Source of the DNA: Candidatus Faecousia gallistercoris
Lineage (GTDB): Bacteria > Bacillota > Clostridia > Oscillospirales > Oscillospiraceae
Reading direction: 5' to 3'
DNA length: 39,507 nucleotides
Assembly: GCA_018715965.1 (NCBI GenBank)
Contig: DVKP01000202.1
Location: 1-39,507, forward strand
Each line of letters starts with the position of its first letter. Positions within the stretch are counted from its first letter, which is position 1. The notes under the pieces are model-generated. The model worked only from the letters and a program-made list of their open reading frames with translations. It was not told the origin of the DNA and did not search any database. The position numbers and the translations under genes are program-made. This document shows, piece after piece, positions 18,336 to 24,561 of the stretch.

Positions 18336-18364
18336 TTGACAAACATAGGGCAGGCCGGTATAAT
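18336..18364 (+). promoter_or_regulatory. Consensus sigma-A promoter of the adenylation/MBOAT operon
   Basis: Perfect TTGACA-17bp-TATAAT. Confidence 0.85.
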
Positions 18365-18400
18365 TGTCTAAAATGATTCGCCGGATGCGGGGGCAAAGCC

Positions 18401-19924
18401 ATGCTGAAAAATGTACTGGAATATTTGGAACAAACTGTGGAGCAAGTCCCCGACCGGCTTGCATTTGCAGATGAGGCCCACACGCTGACGTTCTCTGAGC
18501 TGTATCAGGCCGGCCGTAGCATCGGTACGGCCCTAGCCCGCCGGACCGCCTGCCATAACCGTCCCATAGTCGTACTGGTTGAGCGATCGGCAATGACCGT
18601 GGCGGCTATGCTGGGCGTGCTGTACAGCGGCAACTTTTATGTCCCGCTGGACAGGCAAATGCCCCGCCAGCGTATGAAGCAGCTGTTGGAGCAGCTCCAG
18701 CCGGAAGCGTTGATTTTTTCTCAGGCGGCAGAGGAGCTGGCGGCAGAATTTTCCCCATTGTGTCCCCTGTTTTTGCTGGAGGAAGCAGTCCATACCGCGC
18801 CGGATTCTGCGCTACTGGCCCTGCGGCGGCAGCGGGTTTTGGATTTGGATCCTGCTTATATGATTTTTACCTCCGGCTCCACCGGGCTGCCGAAGGGGAT
18901 CGTGATTTCCCATCACAGCATCATTGATTTTATGGAATGGTACACGCCCACCATGGGGATTACCGGGCATGACGTGCTGGGCAATCAGGCCCCATTTTGT
19001 TTTGATTTGTCTGTAAAGGACCTGTACACCACCTTAAAAACCGGGGCCACCACTTGGATCATCCCCAAAACGTGCTTTTCCTTTCCCCTGCTCCTGATCC
19101 GGTTTTTAAATCAGCATCACGTAACCACCCTCTCTTGGGCGACGTCCGCGTTTCACTTGGTGGCGAATTCCGGCGTCCTGGAAAAAGAAGTACCGGAGCG
19201 CTTACGTATGGTCATACTGGGCGGCGAGGTGCTGCAAGCCAAGCAGCTAAACCGCTGGCGTCGGGCGCTGCCTCAGGTGCAATATGTGAATTTATACGGC
19301 CCCACTGAGGTGACCGTCGATTGCACCTATTATTTCATCGACCGGGAGTTCGACGACACGGAGACGATCCCAATCGGAAAAGCGTGCGGGAATATGGACG
19401 TTTTTTTGTTGGATACCGACAAAAATCCCGTGCCGCAAGGTACCCCCGGCGAACTGTGCGTCCGGGGCAGCGGTTTGGCCCTCGGATATTACGGCGATTG
19501 GGAGCGAACTGCCGGCGCGTTCCTCCAAAATCCGAAAAATCCGTGGTACCTTGACCGGATCTACCGAACGGGCGATCTGGCAGTTGAGGATGCCGCCGGC
19601 AATTTCTGTTTCATCGGCCGGAAAGACCATCAGATCAAACACGGTGGATACCGGATTGAACTGGGGGAAATCGAAGCCGCTTTAAACGGCCTGCCGAAAT
19701 TGGACGCCGCAGTATGCCTGTATGACCGGGAGCGGGATAAAATCATCTGCATCTACCAAGGTGCATGCTCCGGCGAAGAGATTGCCCGGACTCTGCTGGA
19801 AATGCTACCTAAATATATGTTGCCGAACCTTTACCACCAAATCCGGCAGATGCCGTATAACAGGAACGGTAAAATCGACCGGGCACAACTGAAAAGGGAA
19901 TACGATGGAACAAATTCAGAATGA
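18401..19924 (+). CDS. Stand-alone amino acid adenylation enzyme (DltA-like / NRPS A domain)
   Basis: YMIFTSGSTGLPKG, FDLSV, NLYGPTE, GELCVRG, YRTGDL, GRKDHQIK-GYRIELGEIE, LPKYMLP and NGKIDR. Confidence 0.93.
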   Translation: MLKNVLEYLEQTVEQVPDRLAFADEAHTLTFSELYQAGRSIGTALARRTACHNRPIVVLVERSAMTVAAMLGVLYSGNFYVPLDRQMPRQRMKQLLEQLQPEALIFSQAAEELAAEFSPLCPLFLLEEAVHTAPDSALLALRRQRVLDLDPAYMIFTSGSTGLPKGIVISHHSIIDFMEWYTPTMGITGHDVLGNQAPFCFDLSVKDLYTTLKTGATTWIIPKTCFSFPLLLIRFLNQHHVTTLSWATSAFHLVANSGVLEKEVPERLRMVILGGEVLQAKQLNRWRRALPQVQYVNLYGPTEVTVDCTYYFIDREFDDTETIPIGKACGNMDVFLLDTDKNPVPQGTPGELCVRGSGLALGYYGDWERTAGAFLQNPKNPWYLDRIYRTGDLAVEDAAGNFCFIGRKDHQIKHGGYRIELGEIEAALNGLPKLDAAVCLYDRERDKIICIYQGACSGEEIARTLLEMLPKYMLPNLYHQIRQMPYNRNGKIDRAQLKREYDGTNSE

Positions 19925-20684
19925 AGAAGCCCTGTCCGCCCTCCTCTGGAACCAGCTGAAGCCGGGGGTTGCAACCAACGCCCCCTGGAGGCCGGATGCC
20001 TATCTCCACGAAATTCAGGCAGGCCGCTTGTACGCCCATGTCTGGTCCGGGGGCTTGCTGCTCCTGCAGCAACGAAATGGATTTCAGCGGTTGCGCTTTT
20101 TTCTGCAACCCGGCGGCAGCCTGCCGGACTGGCGTCCAGAGCTGCCCACTGTCTTGGAGATTGCGTCCCGGCCCCAGGACGCCGCTTTGGCAGCCGCCCA
20201 ACAGGCTTGGCAGCGCTATGGCTTTCCGCTTTTGTTTTCCCGCCTGCGGATGACCCGGCCGCCCGGTGGGACCGCTGTGTCCGGAAGTCCCGCTTTTCCC
20301 GTGCGGACCGCCGGGCCGGAGGATCTGCCTCAGGTACAGGCGCTTCTTCTGGCGTGCTTTGATGTGCGAACCGGTTGTCTGCCCACGGCTTGGGAGTTGA
20401 AAGAAGACCTGCCGGCAGGCCGCGTGCTCCTGGGGGGCAGCGGCCAAGCCGTCCTGCATCAGGCGCCTGCGGCCGGGGGGACCGAGCTGCGGCATCTGGC
20501 CGTTTCACCCCTGCTCCGGCGGCAAGGCGCCGCCCAAAGTCTAATCACCGCTTACCTCCGTCAGGAAGGCCATCGAATCAGCCGGGTGTGGGTCCGGCAG
20601 GACAATGAGGCTGCCCTCGCGCTTTACCATAAAAACGGATATCGTCCGGACAGCTGGACCTCCAGGGTCTACTGCCTGGACTGA
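19905..20684 (+). CDS. GNAT-family N-acyltransferase
   Basis: LAVSPLLRRQGAA (motif A) and NEAALALYHKNGY (motif B). Overlaps the end of the A-domain gene. Confidence 0.85.
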   Translation: MEQIQNEEALSALLWNQLKPGVATNAPWRPDAYLHEIQAGRLYAHVWSGGLLLLQQRNGFQRLRFFLQPGGSLPDWRPELPTVLEIASRPQDAALAAAQQAWQRYGFPLLFSRLRMTRPPGGTAVSGSPAFPVRTAGPEDLPQVQALLLACFDVRTGCLPTAWELKEDLPAGRVLLGGSGQAVLHQAPAAGGTELRHLAVSPLLRRQGAAQSLITAYLRQEGHRISRVWVRQDNEAALALYHKNGYRPDSWTSRVYCLD

Positions 20685-20703
20685 AACAGAAAGGACGTTC
20701 TCT

Positions 20704-20934
20704 ATGCATGATGAAACAAAACTGCTGCAGATTTTAACGGAAACCTGTCCCGGCGTGGATTTTACCAAGGAGACGGCTCTGGTGGACGACGGTTTTCTGG
20801 AGTCGCTGGACCTGGTAACCATTGTGTCGGAAATCATGGCCACGTTTGACATTGAATTGAACGTAGACGATCTGCTTCCGGAAAATTTCAATTCGGTGCC
20901 GGCCATGCTCCGTTTGATCCAGAGCCGAAAATAA
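20704..20934 (+). CDS. Acyl/aminoacyl carrier protein (DltC-like)
   Basis: 76-aa acidic protein with LVDDGFLESLDLV (Ppant Ser) and PENFNSV. GAAAGGA RBS. Confidence 0.9.
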   Translation: MHDETKLLQILTETCPGVDFTKETALVDDGFLESLDLVTIVSEIMATFDIELNVDDLLPENFNSVPAMLRLIQSRK

Positions 20935-20938
20935 TCCC

Positions 20939-22501
20939 ATGTCTTTTACGTCTGCAGAATTTATCGGCTTTCTCCTGCTGACCCTGGCAGCATACTACCT
21001 CCTGCCCCGGCGCTTTCAGTGGATCGTCCTGCTGGTCGCCAGTTATGGCTTTTATCTTTGCGGCGGCGTGGGCGCACTGGGATATTTGCTGTTTACCACG
21101 TTAACCACCTATGGAGCCGGTCTCTGGTTGGGGAAGCTCAACCTCCGGCGGCAGGCCTTGCCGCCGGAGGCGCGTCCTGCTGCCAACGCCCTGAAACGGC
21201 GTAAGCAGCTGATTGTCGCGCTGGTCACCGTGATCAACTTCGGACTGCTTTATGTGGTCAAATACTGGGACTTTACAGCAGACGCCGTGGCCAGCTTTTC
21301 CGGGAGCCGGCTCCAGCTTCCCAGATTGGACTTGCTGATGCCGCTGGGTCTGTCCTTTTATATGTTTCAGAGCATCGGCTATGTGATCGATTGCTATCGG
21401 GGAAAATACCCTCCCCAGCGAAATGTGGCAAAGTTTGCGCTGTTCACCTCCTTTTTCCCTCAGATGATCCAGGGACCCATCAGCCGCTACGGTCAGCTGG
21501 GCAACCAATTGACCGCCCAGCACCCCTTTGACGCGGACAATCTGAAATACGGGATTCAACTGGCCATGTGGGGATATTTGAAAAAGCTGGTCATTGCAGA
21601 CCGGGCGGCCGTGGCAGTCAATACCGTTTTCGACAACCCGTCCGGTTACGGCGGCGCCATGACCGCCTTGGCCGTGGGCTTCTATTGCATTCAGCTCTAC
21701 TGCGACTTTTCCGGCGGCATCGACATCACCCGGGGCGTCGCGCAGATGCTGGGCATTCACCTGGAGGAAAATTTCCGCCGTCCCATTTTTGCCGCCAGCC
21801 TGAGCGAGTATTGGCGGCGCTGGCACATGACTCTGGGCAGTTGGATGAAGGATTATCTGTTTTATCCCCTCTCCCTGTCCAAGCCCTTTGGACGGCTGGG
21901 AAAATTCACCCGGAAAAAAATCGGCGGCAAGCTGGGAAAGATCCTCCCCACTTCCCTGGCAACCTTTATCGTTTACTTTGTCATCGGAATCTGGCACGGC
22001 GCCAATTTTCGTTACATCGCCTTTGGCCTTTGGAACGGTGTCCTCATTACCGGGTCCTTGCTGCTGGCCAATTCATGGATCGCGCTGCGCAATGCGCTGC
22101 ACATCTCCGACTCCAGCCGTGGCTTGCAGGTGTTCCGGGTCCTGCGGACCATGGCGCTGGTATTCATCGGACGCTATCTAACCCGAGCGCCCCGGCTTTT
22201 GACGGCACTGTCCATGCTGTGGACCACCTTAACCAAGCCCTGCCTGTACCAGGTCGCCGACGGCACCATTTTGCGCCTTGGGCTCCAGGTGAGTGATCTG
22301 GTGATCATTTTAGCCGGGACTGTGTCGGTACTGGCAGTCGAATGCTACCAGGAACGGGGCGGGCAAGTCCGGAAAGCCCTGGAGCGGCGTGGTTTTGGGA
22401 TCCAGTGGCTCTGTATTCTCCTTCCGCTGGTCATCCTGCTTCTCTTTGGAATTTTGCGGGGTGGGTACATCGCCTCGGAATTCATTTACAAGCAATTTTG
22501 A
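20939..22501 (+). CDS. MBOAT O-acyltransferase (DltB/AlgI/PatA-like)
   Basis: PLGLSFYMFQ, FFPQMIQGPI, LYCDFSG, EYWRRWHMTL and GIWHG (catalytic His). The C-terminus is FIYKQF. Confidence 0.95.
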   Translation: MSFTSAEFIGFLLLTLAAYYLLPRRFQWIVLLVASYGFYLCGGVGALGYLLFTTLTTYGAGLWLGKLNLRRQALPPEARPAANALKRRKQLIVALVTVINFGLLYVVKYWDFTADAVASFSGSRLQLPRLDLLMPLGLSFYMFQSIGYVIDCYRGKYPPQRNVAKFALFTSFFPQMIQGPISRYGQLGNQLTAQHPFDADNLKYGIQLAMWGYLKKLVIADRAAVAVNTVFDNPSGYGGAMTALAVGFYCIQLYCDFSGGIDITRGVAQMLGIHLEENFRRPIFAASLSEYWRRWHMTLGSWMKDYLFYPLSLSKPFGRLGKFTRKKIGGKLGKILPTSLATFIVYFVIGIWHGANFRYIAFGLWNGVLITGSLLLANSWIALRNALHISDSSRGLQVFRVLRTMALVFIGRYLTRAPRLLTALSMLWTTLTKPCLYQVADGTILRLGLQVSDLVIILAGTVSVLAVECYQERGGQVRKALERRGFGIQWLCILLPLVILLLFGILRGGYIASEFIYKQF

Positions 22502-22515
22502 ACGGAGGGAATTCC

Positions 22516-24348
22516 ATGTCATCCAAACGCCCCGTGTCATCTAAAAAATGGCTGGCAGCCTTTTTCGGTACCGTCCTTTTGCTGGCCGTTCTGGTCATGG
22601 GCTTCAACTTTTGGACGGATCCCTTCGGCGCATTTGGCGACCATTTTTTTCAGTGGTGGAGCTATGACGAGACGATGAATCCCAGGGTGGCGAAGATTTC
22701 GTATCTGGATCAACATCACGACCAGTATGACTCTTATATCATCGGCGCTTCCTCCTCCAGCTCCTTTCCCACCGAGCAGCTCAACACATATTTCGACGCC
22801 AACTTCTACAATCTGGTGATGTACGGCGCGGACATGCTGGACGTGGAGCAGACCTGTCAATATCTGGTGGACCATTACACCGTCAAAAACCTGGTTGTCA
22901 GCGTGTACATCCACAATGCTCAGGTCTATCACGTGGAGCAGGACCCTTTGACGTATAATCTCCATTGGAAAGTCGACGGCAGCTCCCCGCTTCTCTTCTA
23001 CGCCAAATACCTGCTCTCCAATCCCCGCAACGGCTGGACCAAGCTGCAGCGGCTGCAAACGGATCCTTACCTGCAGCAGTCCTACCGGGTCTTTGATCAG
23101 CAGACCGGCGCCTATGACAAGAGCCGCCGGGATGTGGAGCCCATCGGCGACCTGGAGAGTTACCTGGCCAAAAGCAGCTACGCCGTCTTTTCCAACTACC
23201 CAGAGGGCAGCGCCGATCTTCCCTACCTGGAAGACTGTATGCAGAGCATCGCCAGAATTCGGGACCTGTGCCGGGAGCAAGGCGTAAATTTAACCGTAGT
23301 ATGTCCGCCTATGTACTATGCCTACCTGGAATACTACTCCCCGGAAGACCAGGCCGCCTTCCGGGATGCGTTGGCCGAGGTGACCCCATATTGGGATTTT
23401 ACTCTAAGCTCTGCCAGCTATGAGCCCCGGTATTTCTACGACGATACCCATTTTCGCAACTGCCTGGGTGAGATGGCTCTGGCCCGAATGTTTGGGGACA
23501 GCAGCGTTTATGTGCCGGAAGACTTCGGCGAGTACGTCAGCCAGGCTCCCGCCGGCGCGCAGGAGGCTTCCCCTGCCGCCGCCGAAGCCTACAGCGCCCA
23601 GGTTCCAATTTTGATGTACCATAACCTGGCCCAGGAGGGCTCCGGGAACGACACCATCTCCGTCCAGCGCTTCGAAGAACACCTGGCCGCCCTGCAGGAC
23701 GCCGGGTACACAACCATAACCTTCCAGGATCTGCTGGCCTACGTGGAACAGGGCACAGAGCTGCCGGAAAAGCCGGTTTTGCTCACCTTCGACGACGGCT
23801 ATGAAAGCAATTACACCCTGGCATATCCCCTGCTGCAGCAATACCAAATGAAGGCAACCATTTTTGTCATCGGCGTCTCTATGGGAAAAGACACCTATAA
23901 GGACACCGGGCAGGCCATGATCCCCCATTTCACACAGGAGCAAGCCGCGGAAATGGAGGCATCCGGGCTCGTCGCCATAGAAAGCCACGGCTACGACATG
24001 CACGAGGTCCAGGGCAGAGATCCGGAGCCCATCCGTGTGGGCATCCTACCTCGGGAGGACGAATCCGAATGGGACTACGCAGCTTTTTTGCAGGAGGATT
24101 GCCAAGCCATGACGGATTTACTGGGCAAAACGCCCGGCGTCTTGGCCTACCCCTACGGCTATGCATCTGAGCTGAGCGAGGTCGTCTTACATGAAATGGG
24201 CATATACGCAACGGTGACCATTGAGGAGAAAATCAACACGATTGTCAAAGGCTTGCCCCAGAGCCTGCGCCAAATGGGCAGGTTCTATATGACGGAGGCC
24301 ATATCCGCTCCGGAATTGCTGTCTATGCTGTCCGGCGGAGCGGAATAG
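22516..24348 (+). CDS. Membrane-anchored fusion of an SGNH/DltD-like domain and a CE4 polysaccharide deacetylase domain
   Basis: N-terminal TM ending in DPFG; IIGASS and YDDTHF (DxxH); an Ala-rich linker; then VPILMYH, LTFDDGY, ESHGYDMH and AYPYG. Confidence 0.82.
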   Translation: MSSKRPVSSKKWLAAFFGTVLLLAVLVMGFNFWTDPFGAFGDHFFQWWSYDETMNPRVAKISYLDQHHDQYDSYIIGASSSSSFPTEQLNTYFDANFYNLVMYGADMLDVEQTCQYLVDHYTVKNLVVSVYIHNAQVYHVEQDPLTYNLHWKVDGSSPLLFYAKYLLSNPRNGWTKLQRLQTDPYLQQSYRVFDQQTGAYDKSRRDVEPIGDLESYLAKSSYAVFSNYPEGSADLPYLEDCMQSIARIRDLCREQGVNLTVVCPPMYYAYLEYYSPEDQAAFRDALAEVTPYWDFTLSSASYEPRYFYDDTHFRNCLGEMALARMFGDSSVYVPEDFGEYVSQAPAGAQEASPAAAEAYSAQVPILMYHNLAQEGSGNDTISVQRFEEHLAALQDAGYTTITFQDLLAYVEQGTELPEKPVLLTFDDGYESNYTLAYPLLQQYQMKATIFVIGVSMGKDTYKDTGQAMIPHFTQEQAAEMEASGLVAIESHGYDMHEVQGRDPEPIRVGILPREDESEWDYAAFLQEDCQAMTDLLGKTPGVLAYPYGYASELSEVVLHEMGIYATVTIEEKINTIVKGLPQSLRQMGRFYMTEAISAPELLSMLSGGAE

Positions 24349-24405: not shown

Positions 24406-24425
24406 GGAAGCCGAATTACATAAAG

Positions 24426-24463
24426 GACAGTTCGTGACCATCCTGTCGATAAACAAAACTATG
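24426..24463 (+). ncRNA. preQ1 class I riboswitch aptamer
   Basis: P1 GACAG/CTGTC, loop TTCGTGACCATC and A-rich tail ATAAACAAAACTA, upstream of queT. Confidence 0.85.
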
Positions 24464-24561
24464 GAATGTCTCCGGTATGCCGGAAACCAGATGGGCGCCA
24501 TGGCGCCCATTTTCCTTTGGGATGGGTCTGTTCTGCCCATCTCATTTTTGGGAGGAAGTTT

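Follow-up and report, generated by a model that had tools for sequence, protein, structure and literature searches.

Here we describe a five-gene operon at positions 18,336 to 24,348 of contig DVKP01000202.1 from Candidatus Faecousia gallistercoris (assembly GCA_018715965.1), a stretch of 39,507 nucleotides that was analysed as a whole and is called the window below. The operon works like the Dlt system of D-alanylation, yet it is not Dlt. It shares with Dlt an adenylation enzyme, a phosphopantetheinyl carrier, an MBOAT protein, an FXYXXF tyrosine shuttle and an anchored SGNH protein with a catalytic serine and a DxxH motif, whereas its products score below the DltA, DltC and DltB cut-offs, a shuttle motif that forms part of the MBOAT takes the place of DltX, and a tandem GNAT and an SGNH-fused CE4 deacetylase are added. 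This five-gene architecture is conserved and recurs across Clostridia, and it can be described as a hybrid whose donor is of the Dlt type, whose MBOAT is of the PatA type and whose deacetylase is of the PplD type. We tentatively propose that, outside the cell, it carries out an N-acyl swap on a sugar of the wall, a scheme that we regard as falling a little short of probable.

The five genes lie on the forward strand and all five open reading frames are intact. The gene for a stand-alone amino-acid adenylation (A) enzyme (18401..19924, 507 residues; AMP-binding, 2e-70) overlaps that for a tandem two-domain GNAT (19905..20684, 259 residues; Acetyltransf_1, 2e-7) by 20 nt, and gaps of 19, 4 and 14 nt separate the genes that follow, which encode a carrier (20704..20934, 76 residues; PP-binding, 9e-5), an MBOAT (20939..22501, 520 residues; MBOAT, 9e-16) and an SGNH-CE4 fusion (22516..24348, 610 residues; Polysacc_deac_1, 6e-23; all Pfam matches). 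A sigma-70 promoter, TTGACA-17-TATAAT, matches the consensus at 12/12 positions (18336..18364, forward strand), and the operon is flanked by the pnp and QueT genes. A preliminary description of this DNA had already claimed the tight coupling, the perfect promoter, the placement between pnp and queT and the identities of the five products; each of these held, the last by Pfam matches and model folds.

Comparison with family models separated the A enzyme, the carrier and the MBOAT from Dlt. The A enzyme exceeded the cut-off of the general amino-acid adenylation model TIGR01733 (359.6 against 317.4 bits) and stayed below those of two DltA models (292.4 of 559.85 and 297.6 of 476 bits). Its ten-residue pocket code, DLKSIGLVDK, has 3/9 residues in common with the first nine of the Bacillus cereus DltA code (DLMTLCTVA, taken by eye from an alignment). 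The pocket is not of the D-alanine type: Lys239 and Gly301 replace Met201 and Cys269 of DltA, of which we take Cys269 to be the D-alanine selectivity residue, and Lys239 is kept in 51/54 A domains of the family. The carrier reached 17.6 of 52.35 and 23.2 of 68 bits against DltC, with the generic carrier serine present (Ser34, the predicted phosphopantetheine site, invariant in 25/25 aligned carriers). The MBOAT reached 137.2 of 375 bits against DltB, is longer, and has a FIYKQF end of its own. Gaps of 4-19 nt are too short to hold a dltX, so the operon has none inside it.

The transmembrane relay is the best-supported part of the system. The catalytic His353 of the MBOAT is kept in 78/81 aligned MBOATs, and its C-terminal FIYKQF (22481-22498, forward strand) fits the FXYXXF acyl shuttle, which according to the available text of a review stands alone in DltX and is part of the protein in PatA-type MBOATs, its tyrosine being acylated in both PatA and DltX (PMC12148441). 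Pfam gave no match in the SGNH part of the 610-residue fusion. The model of this protein, with a predicted local distance difference test score (pLDDT) of 90.9, consists of one N-terminal helix, an SGNH domain and a CE4 domain. In the SGNH part (22516..23550, forward strand), which includes the membrane helix (residues 9-34), residues 57-329 of the model match SGNH hydrolases, among them PatB (Z 11.0, root-mean-square deviation (rmsd) 3.6, 161 aligned) and DltD (Z 10.6, rmsd 5.2, 246 aligned). The resemblance to DltD is one of fold and residues, with no DltD family match by sequence, and Ser79, Asp309 and His312 are retained in 39/39 dereplicated fusions. The operon thus resembles PatA/PatB in its MBOAT catalytic histidine, C-terminal shuttle motif and separate, adjacent extracytoplasmic SGNH protein, and differs in coupling a PatA-type MBOAT to conserved A and carrier genes; the review, in its available text, presents Dlt as the sole carrier-fed MBOAT pathway, with acyl-CoA donors and no carrier protein in the others (PMC12148441). 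The near parallel with PatA/PatB and Dlt makes a relay from carrier to tyrosine to serine very probable. A Dlt-like relay of a cargo other than D-alanine had been suggested in the preliminary description, and the DltA scores, the pocket and the shuttle motif bear this out; what that account had overlooked was the MBOAT-fused shuttle in place of DltX and a modular family with swappable donors.

The A enzyme is likely to use an acidic amino acid, Glu or Asp, given the Lys239 common to most A domains of the family, a genomic link to racemases, a partial code match and a known specificity switch at that lysine. Among sister A genes, 18/54 lie directly downstream of an Asp/Glu racemase gene, and a Lys239-to-Gln change reportedly turns the Glu module of surfactin synthesis into a Gln module. 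In addition, the code DLKSIGLVDK agrees at 5/10 positions with the Glu/Gln code DAQDLGVVDK given in the available text of PMC12283262, where Arg-activating domains appear with a similar code frame that carries Glu239/Asp278.

The GNAT belongs to the donor module together with the A enzyme and the carrier, because 14/14 non-self GNAT matches in genomes adjoin A and carrier genes, with or without a CE4, and because this trio recurs without an MBOAT. Besides the host, the GNAT profile matched 6/400 order, 6/398 class and 2/400 phylum genomes, in draws that overlap in part. The full five-gene form was present in ten of the 14 matches; two others had an SGNH without CE4, one was cut by a contig end and one was free of MBOAT. 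The GNAT model (pLDDT 95.7) shows a tandem fold closest to MAB_4324 (Z 18.1) and MshD (Z 17.5, rmsd 3.9, 244 aligned), with VipF and glucosamine acetyltransferases (5kf1, Z 15.6; 4zm6, Z 16.3) as further neighbours. As in MshD-like tandem acyltransferases, one of the two domains has a coenzyme A-binding motif, which in the C-terminal domain is of the acetyl-CoA type (R205 in 51/51, G208 in 49/51, N234 in 46/51 and Y241 in 49/51 sequences). An atlas search returned generic GNAT clusters only. Among the unusual arrangements, a trio with its A gene in pieces lies inside a Wzy/glycosyltransferase polysaccharide locus without an MBOAT (L189, 8217-16536), and another MBOAT-free trio is in a Paenibacillus record (L157, 8301-14307), both accompanied by AAC(3)-like, FabG and FabH-like genes. 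At L083 (2944-6157) the A gene, with Glu at position 239 of its code, stands between two tandem GNAT copies.

The CE4 part (23581..24348, forward strand) follows the acceptor side of the pathway. Its model has a permuted CE4 fold nearest to PgaB, PplD and IcaB (Z 26.9-28.5), and His369, Asp426, Asp427, His491, His496 and Arg589 correspond to the catalytic set H105, D167, D168, H223, H227 and R302 of PplD, which, in the accessible part of its description, removes N-acetyl groups from wall N-acetylglucosamine (GlcNAc) and leaves a free amine that guards against cationic proteins (PMC8807736). The operon CE4 thus shares with PplD, PgaB and IcaB the permuted fold, the Asp-His-His metal triad, the catalytic His/Asp and the distal Arg, and is likewise extracellular and membrane-anchored. 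It differs in being fused to an acyltransferase and scores below the poly-N-acetylglucosamine deacetylase models (PgaB 134.9 of 321.9, IcaB 66.1 of 248.35 bits). No IcaA/PgaC over cut-off was found in the host assembly, whose 78% completeness limits all absence calls in this genome, and a poly-N-acetylglucosamine biofilm system was rejected on this ground.

Searching a class sample with the SGNH part gave matches in 12/400 scored genomes besides the host, and a CE4 was present in 12/12 of these, fused in 10 and encoded by the gene before the MBOAT in 2. Their donors varied: an A-GNAT-carrier set in 4, an FkbH with carrier in the cluster in 4, and an FkbH elsewhere in 2. No CE4 was seen in the loci examined with the other SGNH type, which belongs to the plain clusters and to those with a racemase or a decarboxylase. 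In 39/39 dereplicated fusions, including 6/6 fed by FkbH and 3/3 with an A gene only, every one of the ten SGNH and CE4 residues checked is retained. FkbH loads glycerate, which has no amine to protect. Because the CE4 follows the SGNH and stays intact with this amine-free glyceryl donor, it most likely acts on the acceptor sugar rather than on the cargo, and the co-occurrence patterns place the GNAT with the donor and the CE4 with the acceptor. This supports an option raised earlier, that the CE4 unmasks acceptor amines. The FkbH-linked fusions form one branch of non-independent kin, spanning three families and two metagenome loci, so the FkbH association counts as one or few events. Two loci, L072 and L094, also hold a GT2-GtrA glycosyl carrier gene and a common 630-residue membrane protein without Pfam match; the two together hint at an acceptor sugar added at the membrane surface.

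The operon is one member of a modular family. Within the genus, the A query gave 75 matches in 61/200 genomes; 49/75 were inspected in context and, with a few further loci, provided 54 A genes. Of these, 18 lie after an Asp/Glu racemase gene, in most cases together with a transglutaminase-Ig gene, 11 lie before a gene for a fold-III pyridoxal phosphate (PLP) decarboxylase and 8 before a GNAT gene; 12 have none of these neighbours, and the remaining 5 lack a nearby MBOAT. Each cluster type has its own pocket code and its own tree cluster, the trees (quick or FastTree) being used for clustering only and never for the order of events. Within the genus, 5 genomes showed the five-gene form. A fear voiced in the preliminary description, that the GNAT and CE4 parts might not be conserved with the cluster, proved unfounded: a GNAT accompanies 23/34 dereplicated, context-complete SGNH-CE4 fusions. 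The 34 leave aside 5 short-context fusions; fusions below 540 residues, the CE4-only metagenome loci L104-L144 and L026, a duplicate of L012, were likewise dropped.

The commonest sister cluster in the genus encodes a transglutaminase-like/immunoglobulin-like protein, an Asp/Glu racemase, an A enzyme (DAKCAALGIK), a carrier, an MBOAT, an SGNH and a lipoprotein-like product. Racemase clusters (L015, L017, L019-L021, L033-L041, L061-L064) suggest a D-Asp or D-Glu relay. In the decarboxylase clusters (L014, L022, L023, L043-L048, L051, L060), the fold-III PLP decarboxylase gene lies between those for the A enzyme (DVKILSLCNK) and the carrier, and several MBOATs end in PMYANF or PIYAGF. Stand-alone loaders, carriers and tailoring enzymes also combine in butirosin (BtrI/J/K) and vicenistatin (VinN/O) biosynthesis, where they feed cytoplasmic secondary-metabolite assembly and not a membrane relay; the decarboxylase of the sister clusters resembles BtrK/VinO. 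FkbH clusters, with a predicted glyceryl relay, contain MBOAT, SGNH-CE4, carrier and FkbH genes (L072:5490-13071, L084, L190-L194). One clade of orphan A genes (DAKSFVLGVK-like; L054-L057, L059) has no carrier or MBOAT nearby, and their partners may lie elsewhere. A scan of genome contigs with a single A protein found 3 loci only.

Building on the observed gene set, folds, catalytic residues, shuttle motif and co-occurrence, the N-acyl swap would run as follows. The A enzyme would load Glu or Asp onto the carrier, and the tandem GNAT would N-acetylate the tethered amino acid from a putative acetyl donor. The MBOAT, through His353, would move this cargo across the membrane onto its own C-terminal tyrosine, from which it would pass to Ser79 of the SGNH domain. 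The CE4 would first strip the acetyl group from a wall amino sugar, and the SGNH would then join the cargo to the freed amine, presumably as an amide. With its N-acetyl group kept permanently, the decoration would add negative charge, the opposite of D-alanylation. Such deacetylation of an amino sugar by a CE4, followed by addition of an amino acid to the freed amine, has been proposed for the Wbp/Vim system (VimE/VimA; PMC7468200). In that proposal the transferase is the GNAT-like VimA, and no A enzyme, carrier, MBOAT or SGNH is described in the accessible part of that source; among the five operon proteins, the only ones compared, none matched a VimA-type transferase, the genome not having been searched for VimA/wbp genes. 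More broadly, we regard it as possible, if rather doubtful as a whole, that gut Clostridia use a family of relays resembling Dlt whose donors can be exchanged, to deliver an N-acetylated acidic amino acid, racemised Asp/Glu, a decarboxylated aminoacyl group or a glyceryl group, and that in the branch described here one bifunctional surface enzyme swaps wall N-acetyl for an N-acetyl-aminoacyl amide and so adds negative charge.

Several observations weigh against the N-acyl swap. Codes from non-ribosomal peptide synthetase modules carry over poorly to stand-alone A enzymes. None of the published codes readable as text, a set that does not include the supplement tables of PMC12283262, matches DLKSIGLVDK exactly. 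The operon has no linked acceptor genes; elsewhere in the host assembly, a TagF-like gene lies next to a flippase-like one, and genes for a membrane protein with a sulfatase fold and for a phosphopantetheinyl transferase are also present. Two genomes with CE4, MBOAT and SGNH (G606, G895) did not yield an FkbH. The predicted GNAT-carrier complex speaks for the scheme weakly (score 0.37 against 0.04 for the best control, with a partner pLDDT of 83 or more and agreement between runs in at least 90% of contacts), as scores up to 0.60 in the calibration included 18/157 solved complexes that reached the mark and both of the 2/215 mismatches that passed it. The GNAT also adjoins A domains coded DTETIGTVDK, DSQPIGVVDK and DIFFWALLDK, two GNAT-bearing clusters have A domains without Asp235 (IARCFTHASK, VARCFTHASK), and the GNAT is gone from the cluster in three lineages (L068, L085, L096), one of which, L085, has an A code identical to that of three GNAT-bearing loci. 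From these losses and varied codes it follows that acetylation is not always needed, or that the tethered amino acid is not the substrate.

Finally, the amide itself departs from precedent, since the characterised MBOAT/SGNH pairs are O-acyltransferases according to the available text of PMC12148441. This favours an alternative with the same donor and relay, in which the SGNH would make an O-ester as DltD and PatB do, and the CE4 would deacetylate a neighbouring amino sugar as PplD does, either to provide a recognition mark or to tune the charge. The protective free amine produced by PplD is in keeping with this, and the genomic co-occurrence data fit nearly as well; the occurrence of CE4 in 12/12 genomes with this SGNH subfamily, and in no examined locus with the other type, is explained less well, and we consider the O-ester unlikely, if deserving of attention.

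A quite unlikely alternative gives the GNAT another role, in which it would use another acyl-CoA, act on the amino acid while this is still free and unactivated, or re-acetylate released glucosamine. It draws on the glucosamine acetyltransferases among the structural neighbours and on the GNAT losses and Asp235-free A domains described above. The position of the GNAT gene between those for A and carrier is, however, the slot held by the PLP decarboxylase in 11 sister clusters, and the GNAT accompanies A and carrier into loci without MBOAT or CE4. Asp235 of A domains binds the free alpha-amine, and the host A enzyme retains it, which also speaks against this role.

Less probable still is the protect-export-deprotect scheme offered in the preliminary description, in which the GNAT would mask the amine in transit and the CE4 unmask it after transfer, to give a free amino-acid ester. 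GNAT and fusion do occur together, in the 23/34 fusions given above and in 10/13 assessable GNAT genome matches. The CE4 is nevertheless intact in 11/11 dereplicated fusions without an in-cluster GNAT, 6 of them fed by FkbH, and, as noted, in those with an A gene only; it is absent from the GNAT clusters L024, L030 and L151; and the nearest CE4 structures act on GlcNAc. That this is a divergent Dlt operon which D-alanylates lipoteichoic acid in the ordinary way, its GNAT and CE4 being passengers, is highly improbable: DltA and DltB do rank among the top named NCBIfam matches, and the host assembly has no other DltA over cut-off and does have the TagF-like and sulfatase-fold genes, but every Dlt score is far below cut-off, the pocket has Lys239 and lacks Cys269, and the GNAT and CE4 catalytic residues are kept down to about 38% A identity.

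The operon and its sisters are carrier-fed systems in which the shuttle is part of the MBOAT; they are common in one gut genus and occur scattered through Clostridia. We found no published description of the five-gene architecture in a search that fell short of most subscription papers and of the primary DltX paper, whose survey may mention such clusters. If the N-acyl swap and its variants are correct, wall polymers of gut Clostridia would bear varied decorations with amino acids and glycerate that are so far undescribed, some of them anionic and others linked as amides, and these could shape recognition by antimicrobial peptides, phages and the immune system. The A-GNAT-carrier trio is soluble, which makes the donor chemistry directly accessible to carrier mass spectrometry.

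With regard to its genomic setting, the operon is patchy and mobile in position, as the A gene follows pnp in only 1/29 other pnp loci of the genus; a fixed genomic site was rejected for the same reason. The promoter is of the housekeeping type and no rarity, because 38 perfect TTGACA-17-TATAAT sites occur in the 1.93 Mb host assembly; upstream of the A gene in related loci it matches at 12/12 positions in 3/17 and at 10/12 or more in 10/17. The G+C content at third codon positions is 0.62-0.72 in the operon genes and 0.72-0.73 in pnp and queT, close enough that recent horizontal transfer was unsupported. An alternative start of the fusion at 22342 (668 residues) was rejected, as it overlaps the MBOAT gene and homologues have about 610 residues.

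Independent contigs from two public runs cover the operon without indels, and 94-97% of its sampled words are present in runs labelled chicken gut metagenome. The nearest named locus is in Candidatus Faecousia faecigallinarum (Oscillospiraceae), with five proteins 50-74% identical. RNA-labelled runs from 3 studies contain the operon, as contigs only, and because two of these runs are flat across 13 kb, carry-over of DNA is possible. The host assembly has one more MBOAT gene, unrelated to the first (G000:C157:1-759), which is truncated by the contig end. Downstream of the operon, a PreQ1-like riboswitch aptamer (24422-24468, forward strand) lies 5' of queT, scoring 24.4 bits against RF00522 with a gathering score of 39 (E 0.0046). 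It is followed by a terminator-like hairpin (24518-24544), and the leader is kept in three relatives.

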